Assembly (NCBI GenBank): GCA_964577595.1
Contig: CAZNZK010000001.1
Span: 66,271-130,270, forward strand
Direction of reading: 5' to 3'
Length of the DNA stretch: 64,000 nt
Source: an uncultured Candidatus Saccharibacteria bacterium
Lineage (GTDB): Bacteria; Patescibacteriota; Minisyncoccia; Phycocordibacterales; JAKAEA01
Every line of letters starts with the position of its first letter. Position 1 is the stretch's first letter. Below are positions 10,113 through 51,043 of the stretch, piece after piece. Under the pieces are notes generated by a model. That model worked only from the letters and a program-made list of their open reading frames with translations. It was not told where the DNA came from and searched no databases. The translations under genes were made by a program, and so were the position numbers.

Positions 10113-10268
10113 AATAAAATGAGAACAACATGCTCTGGATAATTATTGTCGTTTTGGTGGTCCTGTGGCTTCTCGGGTTTAGTTTTTCCATAGGCGGTGG
10201 TCTTATCCACCTCCTGCTCGTTATTGCGCTTGTCTTGGTTATTGTTCGGCTTCTGACGTAGTAGGTCA

Positions 10269-10338
10269 AAAATAGGTTCGAATCCTATTTGGGGTATCAA
10301 AAAATCACGTTGATTTATAAAGAGGTTTTCGGCGGCTC
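10269..10338 (+). repeat. direct repeat copy 1 (~70 nt) containing a tRNA 3'-end-like segment (T-arm ATAGGTTCGAATCCTAT plus acceptor 3' strand TTGGGGTA)
   Basis: Near-identical to 11583..11654. GGTTCGAATCC is the canonical T-arm. No matching tRNA 5' half upstream. Confidence 0.55.
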
Positions 10339-10427
10339 CGAGGGCTGGACGATGTTAGAACCTGGTTGCAGGAGTGTCCGTAGAGTAAATATTTGGATGT
10401 TAGTCAATTTGATATACTTCAGTTAAC

Positions 10428-11582: not shown

Positions 11583-11654
11583 AAATAGAGGTTCGAATCC
11601 TATTTGGGGTATCAAAAAAACACGTTGATTTATAAAAGAGATTTTCGGCGGCTC
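11583..11654 (+). repeat. direct repeat copy 2 (~70 nt) with tRNA 3'-end-like segment
   Basis: AAATAGAGGTTCGAATCCTATTTGGGGTATCAAAAAAACACGTTGATTTATAAAAGAGATTTTCGGCGGCTC matches copy 1 with 3 small differences. Confidence 0.55.
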
Positions 11655-11821
11655 GACGTTGTGCGCGAGGTAATAACCTTTTGGAAGACCAATAAAGAGC
11701 ACATTTATATCCCGAATTATAGGGATGGATTGTTTAAGATTACACAGCCGACAGAGGTAGAGATGGCGGAGTATCGGTAGGGTTTTAGCAAAAAGGGGTT
11801 AAAAATGATAAAGTTTAACTT

Positions 11822-14276: not shown

Positions 14277-14590
14277 ATGGTAAAAAGAAAGCTGATCCTT
14301 GAAGATGAATTGAAAGTCACCAACAAGCAGGTCCTCGAATGGGTAGAGCTCACAGAAAAGACCTTTGACTTCGCTTGTTACGCTCACATTTGGTTTGAAA
14401 AAGGAGACGATAAGACCAAGCGAGCGATACTTTCATGTTTAGGCTCGAACCTCACTATAAAAGGCAAAAAACTCTTTGTAAATTACCATTCTTTCATAAA
14501 GACCATGATAAAAAGTCGAGAGGCGGTTATCAAAGAATTAGACTCCGCTCGAACCTCGAAACCATCAAGCCATATAAGACAAAACCCCAC
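14277..14590 (+). CDS. hypothetical small protein (possible gene remnant); 3' part of track ORF 14277..14708 overlaps a tRNA exon and is not coding
   Basis: ORF in AT-rich DNA. Only the first ~100 codons are outside the tRNA-Asn 3' exon. Confidence 0.2.
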
Positions 14591-14615
14591 AAATTGTGAG
14601 GTTTCGTCACTAGGG

Positions 14616-14936
14616 CTCCCCCGGGAGGATTCGAACCTCCGACCAATCGCTTACACGAGTCCTTCTATTACTAAAAGGGGTGGACTATATCATTTCCATG
14701 AACCGTGAGGTTTTTAGGAATGAGGCGCTTCCGCAAGAATCTTAAAAAATTCTTGAGTACTCCCGCAAGGGGATAGTCTCTACACCTTCAATGACTTTCG
14801 TCAAAGCTTGGCTCGGTATTGCCCACACGATCGTTTATCTTGGGGGGTTCACCGAATTCACCTCATTTTCAACCACTATTTTCAAAGTGGTGCTGCCTTG
14901 AGACAGGCGACTGCTCTACCGCTGAGCTACAGGGGA
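14616..14936 (-). tRNA. tRNA-Asn(GUU) interrupted in the anticodon loop by a 249-nt group I intron (exons 14903..14936 and 14616..14653)
   Basis: Minus-strand 5' exon TCCCCTG-TA-GCTCAGCGGTAGAGC-A-GTCGC-CTGT. 3' exon TAA-GCGAT-TGGTC-GGAGGTTCGAATCCTCC-CGGGGGA-G. Acceptor pairs with one G.U. Joined loop is CUGUUAA. U1-A72 and G73 as in bacterial tRNA-Asn. CCA not encoded. Confidence 0.7.
14654..14902 (-). other. group I self-splicing intron (subgroup IC3-like) within tRNA-Asn
   Basis: 5' exon ends in U, which pairs as U.G in P1 (exon CUGU / internal guide GCAG near the intron 5' end). Intron ends in G. Conserved core elements present: CCGAGCCAAGC, GAAGGTGTAGAGACTA (P7 5' strand) and GATATAGTCC (P7 3' strand / P9.0). 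Confidence 0.65.
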
Positions 14937-15093
14937 ATAATTGGTTCGGTGTAGAAGCCTTTGCACGACTTCGCGTTTAGACCAGGGGCTTCCTAGTCTA
15001 TTGATGCCTCACATACGACTACGTCCACCGAACCGGAACTATCATAGCAGAAAAGTTTGGCCGAGAAAAGGGTTGTCTGGTATACTTCGGAAT

Positions 15094-17002: not shown

Positions 17003-18925
17003 TTAGAGCAGGCTTTCCGGGTCAATATTAACGCTGAGCGTTGGCGGCAGGGCGGCCAACTCGGCGTGCAGCTTGCCGCCGGGCCAGGTGCCGCGGGGCA
17101 GGGCCAGTAATAAGTGCATGCGGAATTTGCCGCGGGCGAATTCTACAAAAGCCGGGAACATGATTGGTTTGTAATTCTGGAGGTGGCGGGCCAGAGCGAA
17201 CATTTCTTTTTCCACTTCGGCGCGGTCGCCCTCGGCGGTGATTTTGATGAGGGTGGTGCTCGGCGGGTAGCCCAGACGTTCGCGCTCGGCAAGTTCGTCG
17301 CGGTGGAAGTCGGCGGCGTTACCACTCTGGGCGGCCTTGAATGCCGGCTGAGCGCCGGAACGGCTCTGAATCAAAAATTGTTTTTGGGCGAGTGAGCGCA
17401 AGCGCAAAAGCAGATTGGTGACTTCTTCACCGATGCGGAAATCGGGGATTGAGAAAAGGGCATCGGCACTGGCTACGGCCACGTTTTCCACGGGCTTATC
17501 TAAATAGGCAACGGCCAGTTCGGTGCCCAGCAATACCGAGCCGGGCGAATTATAAAAGTGCTCTACCCGTTCGCGGGCTTCGCGTCGGTTAGCGATAGAG
17601 TCGCTATCAAGCTGAAAAACGTTCAGGTCGGGAAAAAGGCCGGTCAAGGCTTCGGCCACGAGGGTGATGCCAATGCCAAGCGTGGTGAGGTTCCAGGAAT
17701 CACAAATGCTACAGCGCTCGGCGGCACTACGCCGTTCCCCACAGCGATGACACAGAAAAAATTGCTCGGCTTCGTCGCCACCGCCGCTGCGGTGTAAAAC
17801 GATAGGCGCGCGACAGCGTGAACAAAGCACGGTGGCGCCGCAGTCGCCGCACACCGTGGTGGGCGCTAAGCCGCGCCGAGCGCAAAAAAGAAAGAGGCGC
17901 TCATTGTGTTCGCGGTTTTCGCGCACTAACGTTTCCAGCTCGTCACTAATGATGCGGAATTCCGGCCGGTCCAATATTTTATACTTTTTCATGTCTACCA
18001 GGCGGGCGGCGGCACTGGAAAGTAGGCGGAACTTCAAGGGCACCAGCTCATGAGCTTCGTCGCGGTTGACCCGGTCTAGGGTTTCGGCGCGCAGGAGGAT
18101 GTCGCCGAGCACTAGGCGAATGCCGAGTTGTTTAGCCAGTATCTCGGCGGCGCGGCGGATATCTACGAACGGTCGAGCTTGCTGTTTGTAGCCCGTGGCC
18201 GCTTCACGCTCCACAATAATAGTGCCGAGGTCGGCCCGGGGCAGGCACAAAAAAGCGCCGGTAGCGATGATGAGTAGGGGATGCGGCTCGCCGACGGCGC
18301 GGTTCCACACTTCGGCGAGCTGTTTTTTTGTCATCGCGGCATTGGCCACGAGCGTGTTATTTTCAATGCCTTTAGAGAGTGTCTCAAAAGCACGAATACC
18401 ATCCTGAATAGTTGGCAGAACCACAAACACCGAACGCTTCCGGGCGAATTCTTCGCGAATAATACTCTTATAATGAGCGAAGCGGTCGCTGTCGTCGGCT
18501 TGGAGGACGAGGGGCGGCAAGGGTAAGTCGGCTATTTTTTTCACCACCATGCTCGCGGGTTCCTTCAGGGTGGCAGCCTGCTCCAGGATTTTTGCCGGCA
18601 CTAAAGCCGCCACTACATTGCCCGTAGTGCCGACAAAATAGTGCGCCAACTCGGCGCACGTTTGCATGAAAGGATTCAGAAATAGTTGCCCTCCGGCCTT
18701 CTCGCCAATCTTACTGGTTCCGACACTGCGTAAAGCAAAAGCAGCTGTTTTTACTTCGCTTTTAATATTGGCCGCCAGCACACTCTCCAGCACAATAGCC
18801 GCTATCAGCCGCTTGCGTAGGGGCACTTTAATGACCGTGCCTGGCGGGAGCAGGGCGGCGCTAAAATAAGTGAGGGTTTCCGCTTGGAGACCGCGGCGAA
18901 TGGGGATGACGCGGACGATGAACAT
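17003..18925 (-). CDS. priA: primosomal protein N' (PriA)-like, with degenerate Walker A/B motifs
   Basis: Cys-rich zinc region CGDCGATVLCSRCRAPIVLH...CHRCGERRSAAERCSICDS. Helicase-domain colinearity with PriA (VFVVLPTIQDGIR ... PLLIIATGAF ... TGYKQQ). Expected GxGKT is ADDSDRFAHYK and DEEH is EREA. Confidence 0.6.
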   Translation of the reverse strand: MFIVRVIPIRRGLQAETLTYFSAALLPPGTVIKVPLRKRLIAAIVLESVLAANIKSEVKTAAFALRSVGTSKIGEKAGGQLFLNPFMQTCAELAHYFVGTTGNVVAALVPAKILEQAATLKEPASMVVKKIADLPLPPLVLQADDSDRFAHYKSIIREEFARKRSVFVVLPTIQDGIRAFETLSKGIENNTLVANAAMTKKQLAEVWNRAVGEPHPLLIIATGAFLCLPRADLGTIIVEREAATGYKQQARPFVDIRRAAEILAKQLGIRLVLGDILLRAETLDRVNRDEAHELVPLKFRLLSSAAARLVDMKKYKILDRPEFRIISDELETLVRENREHNERLFLFCARRGLAPTTVCGDCGATVLCSRCRAPIVLHRSGGGDEAEQFFLCHRCGERRSAAERCSICDSWNLTTLGIGITLVAEALTGLFPDLNVFQLDSDSIANRREARERVEHFYNSPGSVLLGTELAVAYLDKPVENVAVASADALFSIPDFRIGEEVTNLLLRLRSLAQKQFLIQSRSGAQPAFKAAQSGNAADFHRDELAERERLGYPPSTTLIKITAEGDRAEVEKEMFALARHLQNYKPIMFPAFVEFARGKFRMHLLLALPRGTWPGGKLHAELAALPPTLSVNIDPESLL

Positions 18926-22893: not shown

Positions 22894-23038
22894 TTTTTGT
22901 CGGCCACGCCATTCTTGACAAGAAAGCTGAGCGTGCTATAATGCAACAGAACGAATCCGGATGTTTGTTGTGTGCATTCGGGTAAGTGGCGGCTGGTAGA
23001 TTCCCAATATCTGCCAGCCGCTTTTTTATATTCAAAAA

Positions 23039-31372: not shown

Positions 31373-33067
31373 ATGCGTTTCTTTAAACAGCTTCCCCCTT
31401 CATCGTCGGGTATTGATCCCGATCAGGTTTTCCTGGATGCCTCCAACTTGCCGCGTTTTGACCAGCATCAATTTGAAGGTCGCTTGGAAAAGCCCATCAG
31501 TCGTAATACGGTGTTTTTTATGAGCGTTTGCGTTCTCGTTGTTGGTCTTATTTTTATCGGACGTCTTTGGGATTTGCAGGTTGGCCACGGCGTTACCTAT
31601 AAGCAGTTGGCGGAAAGTAATAGTTTACACCCGTCCATTTTATTCGCGTCGCGCGGCGTTATCACCGATCGTAACGGTACTCTTCTTGCTTGGAATGGCG
31701 TTAACCCAGCTAACCCGGCGGTGCCCATGCGTAAGTATAGTACCGCTAATGGCATGTCTACCGTGTTGGGTTATGTAAAATATCCGACCCAAGACACGGC
31801 CGGTTTCTATTATCGCGAAGATTATCTCGGCGTGACCGGCGCGGAAAAATTCTTCAACGAACAGCTAACCGGCCAGAACGGCAGTGAATTGCGCGAACAA
31901 AATGCCGCCGGTGCGGTGCTTTCTGAAAGTGTTATTAAGCCGTCTCAACCGGGTAAAAGCGTCATACTCTCAATTGATAGTCGCGTTCAGTCTGAAATGT
32001 ACTCTGCGCTGGCCGATATTGCCGCTAAGGTGGGCTCGCCGGGCGGGGCCGGGCTCATTATGGACGTACATACTGGTGAAATCATGGCTGACGTCAGTTT
32101 CCCTGAATACAGCTCACAGGTCATGTCTGATGGCGTCAACACTGCCGCCATCAACTCCTATCTCAACGACCCGCGACATCTTCTTCTAGATCGTTCGGTT
32201 GACGGTCTCTATGCCCCTGGATCCATTATTAAGCCAGTTATGGCTCTTGGCGCGCTGGACACTGGCACTATTGCCGCCAGCACCATTCTCTATACTAATG
32301 GTTCAATTTCCGTGCCTAATCCCTACGATCCATCTGTTACGTATGTCTATCACGATTGGCGTAATAACGGCCCGCTTGATATGGAGCATGCCATTGCCGA
32401 ATCTTCCGACGTTTATTTTTATGAAGTTGGTGGTGGCTATCAGGGTCAAAAAGGTATGGGTATCGCCAATATTGATAAATATGCGGCGCTTTTTGGGTAT
32501 GGTCAGCTCGTGCCAAGTACTTTTTTTTCCGGACCGGCCGGTGTCGTGCCTTCACCCGATTGGAAAAAGGCTACGTTTAAGGGTGAAACCTGGACCATCG
32601 GCGATACATATCATAGTGCTATCGGTCAATTTGGCTGGCAAGTCACGCCTTTGCAAGTTTTGCGTGCCATTACTGCTGTGGCCAACGATGGCACACTTCT
32701 CACCCCGACCATTATACTGGGGGATACGAACGCGCTTTCTACAGCCACGCACATTAATTTACCGCAAAGTGAATTTGACGTGATCCACAAAGGCATGCGC
32801 CTTTCGGCTACAATCGGCACTGGCGACGCTCTGAATGTTGGTTATATGCAATTTGCCACCAAAACCGGTACTGCTCAGCTTGGCGCCAATAATGAATTGG
32901 AAAATTCCTGGGTTGGCGGTTTTTGGCCATACGATAATCCCAAGTATGCCTTTGTGATGATGCTGGAGCGTCGTCCTATCGGCAATGTTCTCGGCTCATT
33001 CACTGCCGCTCGCGAGCTTTTCGATTGGATGGCCACAAATACTCCCGAGTACATGGTGAATAACTAG
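31373..33067 (+). CDS. mrdA: penicillin-binding protein 2 (elongasome transpeptidase)
   Basis: SxxK (GSIIKPV), SxN-like (SSD) and KTG (KTGTAQ) transpeptidase motifs. N-terminal TM plus dimerisation domain. mre operon context. Confidence 0.75.
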   Translation: MRFFKQLPPSSSGIDPDQVFLDASNLPRFDQHQFEGRLEKPISRNTVFFMSVCVLVVGLIFIGRLWDLQVGHGVTYKQLAESNSLHPSILFASRGVITDRNGTLLAWNGVNPANPAVPMRKYSTANGMSTVLGYVKYPTQDTAGFYYREDYLGVTGAEKFFNEQLTGQNGSELREQNAAGAVLSESVIKPSQPGKSVILSIDSRVQSEMYSALADIAAKVGSPGGAGLIMDVHTGEIMADVSFPEYSSQVMSDGVNTAAINSYLNDPRHLLLDRSVDGLYAPGSIIKPVMALGALDTGTIAASTILYTNGSISVPNPYDPSVTYVYHDWRNNGPLDMEHAIAESSDVYFYEVGGGYQGQKGMGIANIDKYAALFGYGQLVPSTFFSGPAGVVPSPDWKKATFKGETWTIGDTYHSAIGQFGWQVTPLQVLRAITAVANDGTLLTPTIILGDTNALSTATHINLPQSEFDVIHKGMRLSATIGTGDALNVGYMQFATKTGTAQLGANNELENSWVGGFWPYDNPKYAFVMMLERRPIGNVLGSFTAARELFDWMATNTPEYMVNN

Positions 33068-33069
33068 TA

Positions 33070-33130
33070 GGCAAAAGGGCTTTGACGAAGGCTTTCCCTC
33101 TCGTCCGGCCTGAGAAAAAGTCCTTTTGCC
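33070..33130 (+). repeat. nested-hairpin intergenic repeat, family 1 copy 1 (GGCAAAAGG...AGGC-TTTCCCTCTCGTCCG-GCCT-GAGAAAAAGT-CCTTTTGCC)
   Basis: 61-nt element immediately after the mrdA stop. Conserved core shared with 33713..33773. Outer and inner stems differ between copies but remain paired. Confidence 0.5.
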
Positions 33131-33216
33131 GAGTATTTGTCCCCACGTGTTCTTGACTTATCGCCCAGAATTGGTAAACTTGCGCGTACTTTTACTCCCT
33201 TATTTTTTTCACGATT

Positions 33217-33693
33217 ATGCCTGATACCAAAGAATACTTGACCCAGGAAAAACGCGACGAGCTTGTTAAAGAATTAGAACATCTTCGCAATACCAAGCGC
33301 AAAGAAGTGGCTGAAGAGCTTGAATATTCAAAACAGCTCGGTGATCTTTCTGAAAATGCCGAATATCACCAGGCCCGTGAAGAGCAAGCGATGCTTGAAG
33401 ATCGTATTGGTAAATTAGAAAGCCTGCTTAAAGGAGCGGCTATTATTGGCGGCGACACAAATGTTCGCCGTGGCATTGTTTCTGTTGGTTCAACGGTAGA
33501 GTTACATCGGGAAGGCAAAAAAGACAGCGTTTCCTATACTATCGTCGGTAGTGAAGAGGCCAACACGGCTGCGGGCAAAATTTCCTCATCTTCACCAATT
33601 GGCTCTGCTATGCTCGGTAAGAAGAAAGGTGATTCTGTCACTGTAAAAACCCCAGGTGGCGATGCTGTGTACTCCATCGTAAAAATTTCCTAG
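33217..33693 (+). CDS. greA: transcription elongation factor GreA
   Basis: N-terminal coiled coil with LGDLSENAEYHQAREEQAMLEDRIGKLE. C-terminal FKBP-like domain. Confidence 0.8.
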   Translation: MPDTKEYLTQEKRDELVKELEHLRNTKRKEVAEELEYSKQLGDLSENAEYHQAREEQAMLEDRIGKLESLLKGAAIIGGDTNVRRGIVSVGSTVELHREGKKDSVSYTIVGSEEANTAAGKISSSSPIGSAMLGKKKGDSVTVKTPGGDAVYSIVKIS

Positions 33694-33712
33694 GGGATTT
33701 GCTAGAATAAAA

Positions 33713-33773
33713 GGCAGAAAGGGTTTTCCGAAAGCTTTCCCTCTCGTCCGGCTTGAGAAAAACCTTTTCTGCC
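33713..33773 (+). repeat. nested-hairpin intergenic repeat, family 1 copy 2
   Basis: GGCAGAAAGG-gttttccgaa-AAGC-TTTCCCTCTCGTCCG-GCTT-GAGAAAAA-CCTTTTCTGCC immediately after the greA stop. Compensatory changes relative to copy 1 in both stems. Confidence 0.5.
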
Positions 33774-33787
33774 GTTAATTATTACAC

Positions 33788-35275
33788 ATGGCAACACTTG
33801 AAGAATTACGCGAGGTTCGTCTTAAAAAGTTGGCGTTATTGCGCCAGAAGGGAATGGATCCCTACCCGGCAGTAGTTGCCCGGGACTTTTCACTGGCCGC
33901 TTTGGTGGAGGAATTTCCCCGAATTGCGCCCGAACGCGCTCTTTCCATAGCTGGCCGCATTATGGCTCTTCGCCCGCAGGGCGCTCTCACGTTTATTGTC
34001 CTTAATGACGGCACCGGAAAATTTCAGGCCCTCATCAAAAAAGATGAAATTTCTGCCGACCAGTGGGAACTTTTCGAGCAGGCGGTAGACATTGGTGACT
34101 TTCTGGAAATCACCGGCACGCTTTTTACTACCGCCCGCGGCGAAAAAACCATAACCGTGAAGCGCTGGAAAATGCTCTCAAAGTCGCTCTTGCCGTTGCC
34201 GGAAAAGTGGCACGGCTTGCAGGACGAAGAAGAAAAGCTCCGCAAGCGCTATTTAGATATTCTATTCAATCCTGCTACTCGCGAGCTTTTGGAGAAGAAG
34301 GCAAAATTCTGGCAATTCATTCGCGCCTACCTTATAAAGGCCGGTTTCTTGGAAGTAGAAACGCCAACCCTTGAGCTCACCACGGGCGGCGCCGAAGCCC
34401 GGCCATTTAAAACCCACCATAACGATTACGACATCGACGTCTTTCTGCGTATTTCTGTTGGCGAGCTTTGGCAAAAACGCCTTTTGGCCGCCGGTTTTCC
34501 ACGTGTATTTGAAATCGGCCGCATTTATCGCAATGAAGGCTCCAGCCCCGAACATCTCCAAGAATTCACCAATATTGAGTTTTACGCCGCCTACATGGAC
34601 TACGAAGAAGGAATGGTCTTCACGGAGAAACTCTTGCGCGAAATGGCCGAGCAGGTTTTTGGCACCACTAAATTTTCTTCTCGCGGTTTTGAATTTGATT
34701 TCGCTAATGGCGGCAAGCCTTGGCCCAAACTTGATTACGTTGAGGCGATAGAAAAAATGGCCGGTGTCAATATTCTCAAAGCTACTGAAGAAGAAATGCG
34801 CGCCAAGCTGGACGAATTAAAAGTAAAATACGACGGCACCAATAAAGAGCGCCTTATAGACACACTCTGGAAATATTGCCGCAAGCAAATCGCTGGCCCC
34901 ACCTGGCTGGTCAATCATCCGAAAATTGTTTCGCCGCTCGCCAAAGCTAATCTAAAAAATCTGGAACTCACCCAGCGCGTCCAACTCATCCTTGCTGGTG
35001 CCGAAGTCACCAACGGTTTCAGCGAGCTCAACGACCCTGTTGACCAGCGCGCTCGTTTCCAGGAACAGCAGAAGCTCATTGACCGCGGCGACGAGGAAGC
35101 GATGATGCCCGATATAGAATTCGTTGAGATGCTTGAACATGCTATGCCACCCGCTTTCGGCAATGGGTTCGGTGAACGCCTTTTTGCCATCCTCGCCGGC
35201 GTGCCTGTGCGCGACGCACAAACATTTCCGCTGGTAAGGCCGAAGAAAGAAAAAACTGAAAAAAATAAAGAATAA
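33788..35275 (+). CDS. lysS: lysyl-tRNA synthetase, class II
   Basis: N-terminal OB anticodon-binding domain. Class II motifs including FEIGRIYRNEGSSPEHLQEFTNIEFY and C-terminal GFGERLFAIL. Confidence 0.85.
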   Translation: MATLEELREVRLKKLALLRQKGMDPYPAVVARDFSLAALVEEFPRIAPERALSIAGRIMALRPQGALTFIVLNDGTGKFQALIKKDEISADQWELFEQAVDIGDFLEITGTLFTTARGEKTITVKRWKMLSKSLLPLPEKWHGLQDEEEKLRKRYLDILFNPATRELLEKKAKFWQFIRAYLIKAGFLEVETPTLELTTGGAEARPFKTHHNDYDIDVFLRISVGELWQKRLLAAGFPRVFEIGRIYRNEGSSPEHLQEFTNIEFYAAYMDYEEGMVFTEKLLREMAEQVFGTTKFSSRGFEFDFANGGKPWPKLDYVEAIEKMAGVNILKATEEEMRAKLDELKVKYDGTNKERLIDTLWKYCRKQIAGPTWLVNHPKIVSPLAKANLKNLELTQRVQLILAGAEVTNGFSELNDPVDQRARFQEQQKLIDRGDEEAMMPDIEFVEMLEHAMPPAFGNGFGERLFAILAGVPVRDAQTFPLVRPKKEKTEKNKE

Positions 35276-37821: not shown

Positions 37822-39543
37822 ATGAGCACTCGTAGCCGCATTCGTCTCATTTCCATTTTGCTCATAGCTTTTGCTCTGGTGCTCGTTGGCCGCCTTTATT
37901 TTATTCAGATAGTTCAGGGTGGGGATTTTTCTGCGCGTGCCGACGAGCAATATACTCGGCCGAGTAGTGGCCTCTACAACCGCGGTACTATTTACTTTCA
38001 GGATAAAACAAGCACGCTCATTCCTGCCGCTTCACTAGCCACGGGTTATACGGTTGCGATTAATCCTAATCAAATAAGCGCCAGTGGTACGCCAGCGCTG
38101 ATCTACCAAAAACTTAATGGTATTTTGCCGCTGGATAAACCGACATTTTTGGCCGATGCTGCCAAAAGCACCGATACATATGAAGAAATTGCTCAACATG
38201 TTCCGAAATCGCAAGCTGACGCCATTACCGCCCTCAAACTTTCCGCTATTGGTATTTATCAAGATCGTTGGCGAGTCTACCCAGAAGATACTCTAGCTTC
38301 GCAGGTCGTTGGTTTTGTTGGTTACGATAGCACTACCACTGACGGTCGCTATGGTTTGGAAAAATATTACAATAGCACGCTAGAACGCGATGGCGATGAT
38401 GTATACGTAAATATTTTTGCTCAAATTTTTTCTAATATAAAAGAAGTCACTGGAGGTCAGCAAGAGGGGGACATTGTTACCACTATTGATCCGAACGTTC
38501 AGCAATATTTAGAGCAACAATTGCAGGCTGTGCAAGCAAAATACAGCTCAACAGTCACTGGTGGTATTGTTATTGATCCACAGACTGGCAATATTATTGC
38601 CATGGGCGCCACCCCCGATTTTGACCCGAATAATTACGGTAATGTCAGCGATATTGGTGTTTTCACAAACCCGTTGGTGCAAAACGTGTATGAAATGGGT
38701 TCGGTTATAAAGTCGCTGACTATGGCAGCCGGCTTGGATGCGGGGGTAGTGACACCGACCACGACCTATAACGACACCGGCTCGCTCACTTTGGACGGGC
38801 ACACTATTTGGAATTATGATTTACGTGGTCGGGGGCCACAAACCACTATGCAAACGGTTTTGAATGACTCGCTCAACACGGGTGCGGCCACAGTTGCCCT
38901 CAAGCTCGGCAATAGCCTATTCTCAAATTATATGTACCGTTTTGGCCTTGGTTCCAGCACGGGTATTGATTTACCTAATGAGGCACACAACTTACTGAGT
39001 ACTCTACAAAGCTCGCGTGACATTGATCATGCCACCGCCGCGTATGGCCAGGGTATTGCCATGTCGCCGATTTCTACGGTCCGCGCGCTTTGTGCTTTGG
39101 CTAATGGTGGCACGCTTATTACGCCGCACGTGGTCAATCAGATTAATTATACCGATGGTACGAGTCGCACGCTTTCGTATGGTCCAGGTCCGCGGGCTAT
39201 TTCCACCAGCACAGCGCTGGCTATTTCCGGCATGCTTACCACGGTGTATCAGCAGGCCTTAGTTGCCGACAAGGTTGGCGCGGTTAAATTTAATAACTAT
39301 TCCGTTGCTTCTAAAACCGGCACGGCTCAAATTCCGGCGCCTGGCGGCGGCTATCTGCCCAATCAATATTTGAACTCTTTCTTCGGTTATTTCCCCTCAG
39401 CTCAGTCGCAGGCACGTTTCCTGATTTTCTTGTATACTTATAAGCCGCAGAATGTTGACTTTGCTTCGCAGAGCTTAACGCCATCATTTGTTAATTTGGT
39501 CAAATATCTGATAAATTATTACGAAGTGCCTCCAGATCGCTAG
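37822..39543 (+). CDS. ftsI: peptidoglycan D,D-transpeptidase FtsI (PBP3-like)
   Basis: SxxK (GSVIKS), SxN (NDSLNTG), KTG (KTGTAQ). N-terminal TM. dcw position. Confidence 0.75.
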   Translation: MSTRSRIRLISILLIAFALVLVGRLYFIQIVQGGDFSARADEQYTRPSSGLYNRGTIYFQDKTSTLIPAASLATGYTVAINPNQISASGTPALIYQKLNGILPLDKPTFLADAAKSTDTYEEIAQHVPKSQADAITALKLSAIGIYQDRWRVYPEDTLASQVVGFVGYDSTTTDGRYGLEKYYNSTLERDGDDVYVNIFAQIFSNIKEVTGGQQEGDIVTTIDPNVQQYLEQQLQAVQAKYSSTVTGGIVIDPQTGNIIAMGATPDFDPNNYGNVSDIGVFTNPLVQNVYEMGSVIKSLTMAAGLDAGVVTPTTTYNDTGSLTLDGHTIWNYDLRGRGPQTTMQTVLNDSLNTGAATVALKLGNSLFSNYMYRFGLGSSTGIDLPNEAHNLLSTLQSSRDIDHATAAYGQGIAMSPISTVRALCALANGGTLITPHVVNQINYTDGTSRTLSYGPGPRAISTSTALAISGMLTTVYQQALVADKVGAVKFNNYSVASKTGTAQIPAPGGGYLPNQYLNSFFGYFPSAQSQARFLIFLYTYKPQNVDFASQSLTPSFVNLVKYLINYYEVPPDR

Positions 39544-39546
39544 AAG

Positions 39547-39605
39547 GTGAAAGAACTTTTCGCAGGGGCTTGCATCGTTTATCTCCCCGAGAAAAGTTCT
39601 TTCAC
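39547..39605 (+). repeat. nested-hairpin intergenic repeat, family 2 copy 1
   Basis: GTGAAAGAACTTTTC-GCA-GGGG-CTTGCATCGTTTATCT-CCCC-GA-GAAAAGTTCTTTCAC between ftsI and murF. Reverse-complement homolog of 49570..49628 with compensatory outer-stem changes. Confidence 0.5.
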
Positions 39606-39616
39606 CGTATAACACT

Positions 39617-48191: not shown

Positions 48192-48586
48192 TAAAAAGGC
48201 AGATTGTGGATATCCTCTTGCACGATTTTATCAGTAGGAGTACTATCATTTCAGACACAAAATTCTTTTTTGGTTCCATTGGGAGCCAGGGTTTTGTCAT
48301 TTCTCTTGTTAATGTCGCGCAAGGATGTGCGACACGCCGGCCTGAAAGGAGCTGGCAAAAAAACGAGGAAATTTCATACGTTTCAATCGAAATGCTTGAT
48401 TCTATCGTGCTTAAAGCGCTTGTTTAGGGCCCTGGACTCACGTCGCGACTGAGTCGGACGGCCTACAGCAGAAAACACGTAAGGATCAAAATGGCTGAAC
48501 TGCGACTCACAACCGCGGTTCAGCTATTTTTTATTGGCAATGTGCACTATTGCCTTTTTATTAATATCTGTTAAAATAGCGAAACT

Positions 48587-48922: not shown

Positions 48923-48941
48923 ATATAAGAAAAACCGCTTA

Positions 48942-49553
48942 CTACGAGCGGTTTTTTAGTGCGAATTTAAGGGTGTCGCTATCAGAATATTCTAATTCGG
49001 TGCCAGTGGAGACGCCTTTGCCTAAATGGGAGATTTTTGCGGTGCCCATGACGGGTGCTAAAAGTCGTTCTATGTAGTCGCCGGTGTGTTCGCCCTCGGG
49101 GGTGACATTCATAGCCAAGATAATTTCCCGCAAGTCCGCTTGACGGTTTTTAACCGTAGCGAGCAGTTCTGTTTGGCGAATCCGTTCCTCTGGCTTTTCC
49201 GTGAGAATGGGTACACTACCGCCGAGCACAAAATAAAGACCCTTATAGGCGCCGCTCTTTTCGATACTTTCAAGGTCAATATCGCGACTCACTATCATGA
49301 GTTGGCTTTTATCACGATGCTCGTCGCGGTCAATATCGCAGAGTTTTTGGTGATTGCCGGCTGGTTTTTCAAAAAAACGGTGGCATGCCGTACATTCCGC
49401 CACGGTGCCCTTCAGGGTGCTGACAAGCTTCGTTAATTCCTCATTGTGGTGTTGCGAGCGGGTAAGAAGGTAATAAGTGAATCGTCTTGCCTGCCTCGGT
49501 CCAATGCCTGGAAATTTTCCAAACAGTTCTGTTAATCGTTCTATGGTAGTCAT
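48942..49553 (-). CDS. recR: recombination protein RecR
   Basis: HhH LFGKFPGIGPRQARRFTYYLL, C4 zinc finger CTACHRFFEKPAGNHQKLCDIC, Toprim domain. Confidence 0.85.
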   Translation of the reverse strand: MTTIERLTELFGKFPGIGPRQARRFTYYLLTRSQHHNEELTKLVSTLKGTVAECTACHRFFEKPAGNHQKLCDIDRDEHRDKSQLMIVSRDIDLESIEKSGAYKGLYFVLGGSVPILTEKPEERIRQTELLATVKNRQADLREIILAMNVTPEGEHTGDYIERLLAPVMGTAKISHLGKGVSTGTELEYSDSDTLKFALKNRS

Positions 49554-49569
49554 TAAAATTTATTATAAC

Positions 49570-49628
49570 GCAAAAGAGCTTTTCTCGGGGAGATAAACGA
49601 TGCAAGCCCCTTCGAAAAGCTCTTTTGC
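49570..49628 (+). repeat. nested-hairpin intergenic repeat, family 2 copy 2 (inverted orientation relative to 39547..39605)
   Basis: GCAAAAGAGCTTTTC-tcGGGGagataaacgatgcaagCCCCtt-CGAAAAGCTCTTTTGC between recR and dnaB. 16-bp perfect outer stem. Confidence 0.5.
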
Positions 49629-49651
49629 TTTCAAATACACTAAAAACCACC

Positions 49652-51043
49652 TTAAAAATCATCACCTCCAGCTGGAGCGGCAAAATTATTATCCAGGGTA
49701 ACGAAACTCGTCTTTTTCTCGTCAAAGTAGAGCTCTGCCTTGCCGGTGGGGCCGTTGCGGTGTTTTTCAATCAGAATTTCGGCGATATTTGGCCGGCCCG
49801 AATCTTTATTTTGTTTATCTTCACGGTGAATGAACATAACCACATCGGCGTCTTGTTCAATGGATCCGGAATCGCGCAAGTCGGAGAGGCGGGGGCGGCC
49901 ACCGCGTTGTTCAACGGCGCGGGAAAGCTGGGAAAGGGCCAAAACGGGCACATCTAGTTCGCGGGCTAATTGTTTGAGTGAGCGGGAAATTTCGGTGATT
50001 TGTTGTACTAAATTGTCATTGGCCCGAGAATTGGTTGGTTGCATGAGCTGGAGATAGTCCACCACCACCAAGCCAAGACCCTTTTCTGATTTTAGGCGCC
50101 GCGCAGTAGAGCGCATCTTCAAAATAGTGTTAGCAGGCGCGTCGTCAATAAATATAGGCGCTTTAGAGAGGCGACTCATGCCTTCCTGGAGAGCGGTGAA
50201 GTCGTGCTCAACAAAACCGTGACCCGTGCGCAATTTCCAGGAATCAACACGCGACTCGGCGGCGAGCATGCGGTCAACGAGCTGTTGAGCGCTCATTTCC
50301 AAAGAAAATACTCCAACAGGGATATTGTGGGTGATAGCGGCATGGCGAATAATGTCCAAGGCGAGCGACGTTTTACCAACAGATGGGCGAGCGGCCAAAA
50401 TTATAAGATCCGATTTCTGTAGACCGGCCAGCTTGCTGTCCAAATCCTTAAAGCCGGTAGGGACGCCGCGAAGTTCGTCACGTGATTGGTGGAGCTTGTC
50501 AAAACGCTCCCAAGCACCAGCGAGTTCGTCGCCGAGCATGACGAAGCGGTGAGCAGTAGGGGCGTTGGTGACCTCAAAAACACGTTTTTCCGCGGAATCC
50601 AGCAATACTTCCAGCTCGTTGCCTTCATCGTAGCCCAGACGGTTAATATCCTCGCCACACTCAATGAGGTTACGCATCACAAACTTCTTTTCCACGATTT
50701 CCGCATAGTGCTTAATGTTGGCAGCCGATGGCACTGAGTTGACGAGCTCGCTCAAATAGCTGGCGCCACCAACGCGGTCAAGCTCGCCTTTTTCGCGCAA
50801 GCGGTTGGAAAGGGAGAGGAGGTCGATTGGTGTGGAAACATTTAAAAGATCCAGCATCGTTTGGTAGATAATGCGGTGGCGCTCGGCATAAAAAGAATCA
50901 GATTTAATTTGGTCCACCACTTCATGGATGACATCAGGACGGAGCATGACAGAACCCAAGAGGGCCATTTCAGCTTCCACGCTTTGCGGCGGCACCCGCA
51001 CGTACGGAGATTTTTGTTGAATGAGTTTAGATTCTGTTGACAT
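49652..51043 (-). CDS. dnaB: replicative DNA helicase DnaB
   Basis: N-terminal DnaB domain (ALLGSVML). RecA-like domain with Walker A ARPSVGKTSLALDI, Walker B VVVDYLQLM, arginine finger. 463 aa, no intein. Confidence 0.85.
   Translation of the reverse strand: MSTESKLIQQKSPYVRVPPQSVEAEMALLGSVMLRPDVIHEVVDQIKSDSFYAERHRIIYQTMLDLLNVSTPIDLLSLSNRLREKGELDRVGGASYLSELVNSVPSAANIKHYAEIVEKKFVMRNLIECGEDINRLGYDEGNELEVLLDSAEKRVFEVTNAPTAHRFVMLGDELAGAWERFDKLHQSRDELRGVPTGFKDLDSKLAGLQKSDLIILAARPSVGKTSLALDIIRHAAITHNIPVGVFSLEMSAQQLVDRMLAAESRVDSWKLRTGHGFVEHDFTALQEGMSRLSKAPIFIDDAPANTILKMRSTARRLKSEKGLGLVVVDYLQLMQPTNSRANDNLVQQITEISRSLKQLARELDVPVLALSQLSRAVEQRGGRPRLSDLRDSGSIEQDADVVMFIHREDKQNKDSGRPNIAEILIEKHRNGPTGKAELYFDEKKTSFVTLDNNFAAPAGGDDF

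Follow-up and report, generated by a model that had tools for sequence, protein, structure and literature searches.

Repetitive extragenic palindromic (REP) sequences and bacterial interspersed mosaic elements (BIMEs) of enterobacteria and pseudomonads are transcribed into 3' hairpins that protect the upstream mRNA and cause partial termination, and processing by ribonuclease III (RNase III) leaves a stable 3' hairpin on the upstream product. In Mycobacterium, the TRIT ('Tuberculosis Rho-independent terminator') is a genus-restricted, conserved palindromic hairpin that is present in 147 copies and lies tight to stop codons (Gardner et al. 2011, PMC3152330). From its sequence conservation, the authors proposed that a factor recognises it (PMC3152330). 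Our searches of the full-text literature on repeats and terminators in Patescibacteria, or the candidate phyla radiation (CPR), found no relevant description, and dispersed hairpin repeats are, as far as these searches show, apparently undescribed in the streamlined genomes of these bacteria. Here we analysed a 64-kb stretch of DNA (64,000 nt, referred to as the window) from an uncultured Candidatus Saccharibacteria bacterium, together with two 10-kb extensions of the same genome (L076 and L077), about 84 kb in all. This DNA holds four solitary copies of a 61-nt hairpin element, two of which lie on either side of greA.

The elements constitute a small dispersed family of 61-nt intergenic palindromic repeats. 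A sequence-only reading of the window had reported two 61-nt elements after the mrdA and greA stop codons, and both were found where it placed them, F1a at 33070-33130 on the plus strand (GGCAAAAGGGCTTTGACGAAGGCTTTCCCTCTCGTCCGGCCTGAGAAAAAGTCCTTTTGCC) and F1b at 33713-33773 on the same strand (GGCAGAAAGGGTTTTCCGAAAGCTTTCCCTCTCGTCCGGCTTGAGAAAAACCTTTTCTGCC). A repeat finder returns this pair, which we designate family 1, as 63 nt with 81% identity, and its 17-mer core, CTTTCCCTCTCGTCCGG, occurs exactly twice in the 64 kb, against 0.12 occurrences expected. Two further copies were found via the inverted-repeat list and direct reading of the sequence. They form family 2, in which the 61-nt scaffold is shared but the apical core, GGGGCUUGCAUCGUUUAUCUCCCC, is a different one; F2a lies at 39546-39606 on the plus strand, and F2b, with an identical core, at 49569-49629 on the minus strand. 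The possibility that only the first two copies exist, which the sequence-only reading had named as one that would undo its proposal, is set aside by the presence of four in about 84 kb, none having been found outside the species.

All four copies align over 61 columns with zero gaps and share the scaffold GGCAAAAGrrCUUUUC...GAGAAAAG...CUUUUGCC. Their common 15-bp outer stem follows the pattern GGCAAAAGrrCUUUU(C) / (G)AAAAGyyCUUUUGCC, in which a GGC clamp is combined with an A-run that pairs with a U-run, with a short G+C block and with CUUUU/AAAAG. Around the inner stem, all four copies have CGMA on the 5' side and an invariant GAGAAAA on the 3' side, which are able to form tandem G-A pairs. 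On this scaffold sits one of two unrelated apical stem-loops, that of family 1 with the loop UUCCCUCUCGUCC and that of family 2 with the loop CUUGCAUCGUUUAUCU, the latter having the form GGGG-CUUGCAUCGUUUAUCU-CCCC (core for searching, GGCTTGCATCGTTTATCTCC). A covariance model built from the four copies (R1) scored F1a at 78.6, F1b at 77.6, F2a at 79.8 and F2b at 80.8 bits, while the next unrelated match reached 25 bits. With its filters off, R1 detected no fifth copy in the 64-kb window, and architecture-based regular expressions combined with R1 detected no further copy in the two extensions, which add about 20 kb.

The nested hairpin described in the sequence-only reading was reproduced for both family 1 copies. 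F1a folds at -29.3 kcal/mol (z = -3.2) and F1b at -28.0 kcal/mol (z = -4.5), with 0 of 200 shuffles as stable, and the folding energies of F2a and F2b are -31.0 and -29.8 kcal/mol, respectively. In the family 1 fold, a small internal loop separates the long outer stem from an inner stem of 5 bp, which is capped by a 13-nt loop; across the elements, apical loops measure 13-16 nt. In F1a, the outer stem is formed by 33070-33083 and 33117-33130, the inner stem by 33089-33093 and 33107-33111, and the loop by 33094-33106, with a tandem G-A internal loop between the two stems. In F1b, the corresponding parts are 33713-33727 and 33759-33773 (outer stem), 33732-33736 and 33750-33754 (inner stem) and 33737-33749 (loop), the loop showing no differences from that of F1a. 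The stem differences that had been quoted between the two copies were correct: F1b has an additional G-C pair in the outer stem, and a G-C pair of the inner stem in F1a is replaced by A-U in F1b.

Pairing was tested on the 15-bp outer and 4-bp inner helices of the four copies against 500 shuffles. Of the cells defined by the 19 pairs in four copies, 97.4% form standard pairs; changes on both sides occur in 10 of the 19 pairs, and one-sided variation arises only through G-U. These values were attained by 0 of 500 shuffles, and when the 3' partner column was slid by 1-3 columns, pairing fell to 42-69%. The proposal that complementarity has been kept through compensated changes is thus borne out, and more strongly so with the second pair of copies included. 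Sequence conservation is concentrated in the loops. Inside a family, 17 of 60 positions differ in the outer stems, 4 of 62 in the central 31 columns and 0 of 30 in the apical loops (Fisher p = 0.0016 and 0.0005). Outer stems diverge at 8-9 of 30 positions within a family (8 between F2a and F2b) and at 6-13 of 30 between families, whereas the cores differ at 20-21 of 31 positions between families and the loops are identical inside each. The stem is thus selected for pairing alone and the loop for its sequence, and the design looks modular. Such a pattern, with frozen loops, compensated stems and two loops for one scaffold, is unusual and points to sequence-specific recognition of the loop. Being four sequences from one genome, the copies show that complementarity is maintained, and not whether it is maintained at the level of RNA or of single-stranded DNA.

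The elements are located in spacers between co-directional genes, all four in the sense orientation of the flanking genes, whose identities were assigned by Pfam matches. F1a starts 2 nt past the stop codon (33065-33067) of mrdA, the gene for penicillin-binding protein (PBP) 2 (31373-33067). F1b lies between greA (33217-33693) and lysS, which encodes a class II lysyl-tRNA synthetase (33788-35275); it starts 19 nt past the greA stop codon (33691-33693), and 14 nt separate its end from the lysS ATG (33788). F2a lies inside the dcw operon, where its start is 2 nt past the stop codon (39541-39543) of an ftsI-type PBP gene and its end 10 nt short of the ATG (39617) of a murE-type ligase gene, and F2b lies between the dnaB stop codon (49652-49654) and the recR start (49553), beginning 22 nt past the stop. 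Three of the elements end 10-15 nt ahead of an ATG.

On this basis, we tentatively favour, at somewhat less than an even chance, the view that the elements represent a new REP/TRIT-like family of hairpin repeats that would act as a barrier at RNA 3' ends, as a partial terminator and possibly as a processing site, with a loop read by some factor. Given the sense orientation in four of four cases, the elements would be co-transcribed with the upstream gene and would present in the mRNA a very stable, nearly blunt-ended hairpin (-27 to -31 kcal/mol) at or just past the stop codon, which would block 3'-to-5' exonucleases. The sub-stem followed by U3-4 may cause partial termination or attenuation between adjacent cistrons, and either termination or 3' protection would put transcript 3' ends at ..CCUUUUGCC. 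With about 20 bp of helix and an internal loop, the hairpin also has the shape of an RNase III processing site. That the loop sequence may be read by some factor is suggested by the perfect conservation of the loops on fast-changing, always compensated stems; candidates for such a reader are RNA-binding proteins and nucleases of the host, as well as the machinery by which the element is copied.

Selection at the RNA level, which the sequence-only reading had advocated, is favoured, if weakly. On the sense strand, family 1 contains three independent G-U wobbles (one in each outer stem and one in an inner stem) and zero A-C mismatches, and owing to these wobbles it folds 2-4.7 kcal/mol better than the antisense strand. 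In addition, the sense orientation of all four copies, including one on the opposite strand, favours a link to transcription. Several points weigh against the explanation that we favour. The strand asymmetry is restricted to family 1, the antisense strand of family 2 folding about equally well. The character of the GC skew shifts between F2a and F2b, at around 44-54 kb, so that orientation to transcription is not separable from orientation to replication. Compensated stems would be expected just as much from a DNA hairpin needed for mobility; termination, processing and stabilisation are all roles that we infer from the sequences; and the sample is four copies, from about 84 kb of a single species. 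F2a stands between ftsI and murE, which are 3-25 nt apart in relatives, and no convincing murE promoter lies downstream of it; since a strong terminator at this site would be harmful, any termination must be partial. According to a study of mycobacterial RNA polymerase, hairpins without a proper U-tract did not terminate this enzyme (PMC3993855).

The history of the elements was examined by comparison with other assemblies. Going by the source names of its GreA homologues, the organism is a bacterium of the Patescibacteria/Paceibacteria type. The same species in other assemblies (99.76-100% identity) has identical elements, the one strain variant seen (L073, 99.76% identical over 20 kb) included, whereas the next-nearest GreA proteins are 70-73% identical. 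Five relatives (L067, L069, L071, L079 and L081) keep the gene order mreB-mreC-mreD-mrdA-greA-lysRS...mraZ-mraW-ftsL-ftsI-murE, but the elements are absent at the same junctions, where the spacers measure 3-92 nt, and R1 gave no match in the five. Because relatives with the same gene order lack them, the elements are lineage-specific and not conserved regulators of greA. In the relatives, the mrdA-greA spacer (69-92 nt) contains only a promoter, the homologous TTGACT-17-TATACT, and no hairpin; a -10 box, 6 nt ahead of the ATG, is all that the greA-lysRS spacer (24-39 nt) contains; and the ftsI-murE spacer is 3-25 nt long. The relatives carry only ordinary A/U-tract terminators.

An empty site is anchored by the C-terminus of ftsI (PPDR, then TAG). 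At this site, TAGA/GTATAG in L069 corresponds to TAGAA[61 nt]GTATAA in the window, so that the inserted unit is the whole hairpin, outer stem included. The outer stem in itself constitutes an inverted repeat; the target duplication is 1 nt (A) at most, TA dinucleotides are found near both ends, and the flanks are A+T-rich. As judged from these alignments, the elements are insertions into short spacers of co-directional housekeeping genes that occurred after the split from the sampled relatives. We also observed that CTAG(A/T)A precedes three of the four elements (33065-33075, 33701-33712 and 39539-39547); in two of these cases, a PBP gene (mrdA or ftsI) has this TAG as its stop codon, and the element starts exactly 2 nt on. 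With n = 4 copies, this could be a target preference or a coincidence.

A history of insertion brings in the alternative of selfish DNA, in which a palindrome resembling a miniature inverted-repeat transposable element (MITE) or a REP would move as a hairpin of single-stranded DNA, driven by a transposase whose gene lies elsewhere in the genome (e.g., Y1/RAYT), and would have no RNA role. Stems and loops would then be kept because the transposase recognises them, and the copies would merely be tolerated in spacers. We consider this possible but unlikely. The clean element boundary at the empty site speaks for it, as do the relatives without elements, the lack of any homologue found outside the species and the modular design of one scaffold with two cores; the occurrence of all four copies within 16.6 kb of about 84 kb (p ~0.03 by our own arithmetic) would fit local hopping. 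These points are countered by the target site, at which no duplication beyond one A is visible, and by the distribution of conservation, which falls on the loop and not on the termini, the reverse of MITEs and REPs. Likewise, the G-U wobbles without an A-C mismatch and the uniform sense orientation lean to RNA. No transposase was noticed in the region, where profiling covered only the open reading frames (ORFs) near the elements, and selfish DNA is scarce in streamlined CPR genomes.

Searches beyond the species were made at several levels. Among 185,579 species genomes, the 17-mer core of family 1 had 55 exact matches, none of which shares flanks or scaffold; about 70 chance matches are estimated for a 17-mer, and the 55 were taken as chance. 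The matches in Streptomyces are the reverse complement of ribosome-binding site (RBS) regions. In the JGI metagenomes, the family 1 loop plus GAGAAA gave 11 matches (8 distinct) on contigs with a G+C content of 0.43-0.65, without scaffold or fold. In L056 and L057, short stems surround the loop; these were rejected as chance, as they are absent from the minimum free energy structures. The genome and metagenome scans covered the family 1 core only. Neither of these large DNA collections returned the window's own copies, from which the source species is evidently not in them, and absence there therefore says little about close relatives. Viral contigs yielded one chance match for family 1 and none for family 2, and blastn against phages and plasmids yielded no match. 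At the gathering threshold, the sole Rfam 15 match in the window was a group I intron elsewhere; at E <= 10, Rfam gave no match over 33040-33800, and over F2a it gave only generic miRNA-type hairpin matches, 3-7 times below their thresholds.

The elements bear some likeness to intrinsic terminators, and one alternative is that they are ordinary A-tract/hairpin/U-tract terminators that share sequence by chance. The likeness begins with position, as the elements start 2, 19, 2 and 22 nt past a stop codon, in the sense orientation in four of four cases, and F1a stands between mrdA and the greA promoter. It extends to the outer stem, whose layout of A-run, G+C block and U-run is that of the clade's terminators. 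A perfect 36-nt palindrome at 56591-56626 (TAACAAAAAAGACCTTTTAAAAGGTCTTTTTTGTTA), which is a bidirectional terminator between the convergent genes rplI and rpmA, has arms (AACAAAAAAGACCTTTT and AAAAGGTCTTTTTTGTT) that resemble the outer stems of the elements, as if it were a coreless scaffold (R1 25.4 bits, span 56594-56623), and terminators of the relatives (CTAAAAAATTCCCT/AGGGAATTTTTTAG) resemble them too. Moreover, the elements occupy the slot in the order stop codon, hairpin, -10 box (where present) and ATG that ordinary terminators hold elsewhere in this genome.

In spite of these resemblances, the anatomy makes this alternative very improbable. An intrinsic terminator has a short loop of 3-8 nt, whereas the elements have a nested stem and apical loops of 13-16 nt; it also has a U-tract of about 7-9 nt, whereas the full hairpin is followed by GAGUAUUU, GUUAAUUA, GUAUAACA or UUAUAAUA. 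The true terminators of the window (e.g., 18283-18323, 22988-23022, 48488-48530 and 48929-48957) combine a G+C-rich stem and a short loop with U5-7 directly after the stem, whereas the elements have U3-4 only, then GCC. F2a, furthermore, lies within the dcw operon. A terminator scan does not call the elements; over 20 kb, a terminator scan was not discriminating (29 sites against 24.5 expected). The sequence-only reading had noted that no clean U-tract follows the hairpin and had argued against plain terminators, and we agree on both counts, with the qualification that U3-4 does occur within the 3' arm, where it adjoins a G+C-rich sub-stem and pairs with the upstream A-run.

A different proposal in that reading, that the family 1 loop resembles an anti-Shine-Dalgarno sequence, did not hold. 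A Shine-Dalgarno-like motif precedes 2 of the 46 long ORFs of the window and none of the four genes downstream of the elements, and the family 2 loop, borne by the same scaffold, is wholly different; the scarcity of such motifs and the second loop together argue against this interpretation. Instead, an extended -10 box (TGnTAnnnT) lies 5-8 nt ahead of the ATG in many genes; this arrangement implies leaderless mRNAs, which appear to be the rule in this genome. Loop pairing targets were sought in the window, and the best duplexes (-25.5 and -23.0 kcal/mol) were no better than those of shuffled loops. Three further candidates were discarded. An antisense mini-ORF, suggested by the reverse strand of family 2, which reads GGAGAUAAACGAUG (RBS and ATG), was dropped since it has no counterpart in family 1. 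An attC site, which would have R''/R' boxes (RYYYAAC ... GTTRRRY) at the hairpin foot and lie in a cassette array beside an integrase, was rejected as there are no such boxes, the feet being GGCAAAAG / CUUUUGCC, and as the flanks are core housekeeping genes in conserved order. A T-box or a GraL-type greA leader was ruled out on anatomy and position.

The promoters around the elements bear both on their assignment to transcripts and on another alternative. The greA promoter (33153-33180, plus strand) is of the sigma-70 type, with TTGACT, a 16-nt spacer and TAAACT preceded by TG, and its -35 box lies 22 nt from F1a. Since this promoter is downstream of F1a, the element belongs to the mrdA 3' region and not to the greA leader. 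Directly upstream of F1b, by-eye comparison identified an extended -10 box, TGCTAGAAT (33700-33708, plus strand), the counterpart of TGCTATACT, which stands 6 nt ahead of the leaderless lysS ATG in the relative L079. A transcript from this box would begin within the first bases of F1b, and because of its position F1b may serve as the 3' hairpin of greA and, at the same time, as the hairpin at the 5' terminus of the lysS mRNA. After F2b, TATAAT is located 8 nt before the recR ATG, a promoter typical for this genome.

The elements might, alternatively, be portable promoter parts, the (T/C)(T/C)GAGA in their 3' half serving as a -35 box for a -10-like hexamer 1-3 nt after the element. A promoter scan does give TTGAGA, 18 nt and AATTAT across the 3' end of F1b, and the hexamer following F2b has a parallel in TATAAC after F2a. 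However, the family 2 box is CCGAGA, with 3 of 6 matches and a 15-nt spacer, only 3 nt separate the hexamer after F2a from the ATG, greA is served by a full promoter of its own downstream of F1a, and the ancestral -10 box of lysS is upstream of F1b. Many promoters here are, in addition, of the extended -10 type and need no -35 box. We give this alternative scarcely any credence.

Beside the greA-lysRS junction, we observed that the synthetase gene itself varies. A class II lysyl-tRNA synthetase (LysRS, PF00152) follows greA in the window (33788-35275) and in L079 (10493-11962), while a class I LysRS (PF01921) is encoded at the same position in L067 (6516-8117), L069 (3932-5533), L071 (10520-12121) and L081. 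This looks like an in-place swap of one LysRS class for the other among close relatives.

The frozen loops allow an additional alternative, in which the elements would be RNA modules addressed by their loops. A trans-acting protein or RNA would read the loops, e.g., for an RNase III-type cleavage that frees the downstream cistron with a very short leader, and would couple or tune mrdA/greA/lysS through family 1 and ftsI/murE and dnaB/recR through family 2. This is improbable in our estimation. It draws on the contrast between loops (0 of 30 positions differing) and stems (17 of 60), on the tandem G-A internal loop and invariant GAGAAAA of all four copies, and on the short distance (10-15 nt) from the ends of three elements to an ATG, in a genome that lacks Shine-Dalgarno sequences and often uses leaderless starts. 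The elements, moreover, share with phage T7 RNase III sites a coaxial helix of about 20 bp that an internal loop interrupts. Against it stand the lack of any loop partner in the window beyond the level of shuffled loops, the lack of an obvious functional link among the genes beside each family, and the relatives, which manage without the elements. We regard with similar doubt a broader version, in which modular 'addressed' hairpins would have a scaffold that shows a frozen 13-16-nt loop to a trans-acting factor and in which read-through operon transcripts, cut or bound at the element, would become units whose 3' end is protected and whose downstream cistron has a very short leader, or in which a hairpin mobile element in a CPR bacterium would have a loop-recognising copying mechanism. 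The protected ends and short leaders would fit a genome that is free of Shine-Dalgarno sequences and rich in leaderless starts.

Other features of this genome were noted in passing. The intron matched by Rfam (RF00028, 14661-14912, 53.3 bits) splits the anticodon region of a tRNA gene at 14578-14960 on the minus strand; exon halves are visible on both sides, followed by a hairpin with a T-run, and ARAGORN makes no call. A pair of repeats of about 95 nt at 10268-10363 and 11583-11679 on the plus strand (94% identity over the first 54 nt and 73% over the next 45 nt) opens with a sequence like a tRNA 3' half, AGGTTCGAATCCTATTTGGGGTA, and lies in a stretch of low G+C content at 8-14 kb (0.40-0.42 versus 0.48-0.50 elsewhere). 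The pair is possibly an att-like duplication at the site of an inserted island. In the extension L076 (17638-19878, about 6-8 kb beyond the window start), genes for cytochrome bd oxidase subunits I and II stand beside those for DsbA, MsrA and MsrB, and this set is unusual equipment for a CPR bacterium.

If the 61-nt elements set transcript boundaries or processing sites, as in the explanation that we favour, they would provide a handle on how operon mRNAs are punctuated, and on translation, in a bacterium that works without Shine-Dalgarno sequences and is largely leaderless. If they are only selfish palindromes, they would still be a marker of recent genome dynamics in a lineage that is, to our knowledge, thought to be nearly free of selfish DNA. 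Four copies in one species make this a lead rather than a result.

Among described systems, the TRIT is the closest documented analogue. Both it and the elements are lineage-restricted, multi-copy, conserved palindromic hairpins tight to stop codons and without a canonical U-tract. The TRIT, however, numbers 147 copies, which are mostly bidirectional and usually overlap the end of the coding sequence, whereas the four known elements are all in the sense orientation and lie just outside the coding sequence. The elements also differ from it in that their loops are conserved, their stems covary and their two cores are interchangeable, and there is no sequence similarity to the TRIT. With REPs and BIMEs, the elements share the character of dispersed, extragenic, imperfect and species-specific palindromes, all four being located in spacers between ORFs, and 'REP-like element', the label given in the sequence-only reading, is reasonable to this extent. 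REPs, on the other hand, are 20-40 nt long, start with GT[AG]G and occur in hundreds of copies, often in alternating clusters, with conserved stems. The elements are 61 nt long, nested and solitary, with conserved loops; only F1a is preceded by ..TAGTAGG.., the other three having neither GTAG nor GTGG at the 5' foot, and no RAYT gene was identified among the profiled ORFs near the elements. RNase III hairpins such as phage T7 R0.3-R1.3 and operon sites are similar in shape, with a coaxial helix of about 20 bp, an internal loop and a place between cistrons, and the elements have 15 bp (plus one pair in family 1) stacked coaxially on 4-5 bp, with a small internal loop between them; the elements and these sites are unrelated in sequence. 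Finally, the A-tract/U-tract terminators of the clade have the same outer composition, with a short loop and a 3' U-run of 5-7 nt, whereas in the elements a 31-nt insert replaces the loop and U3-4 only is closed by GCC.

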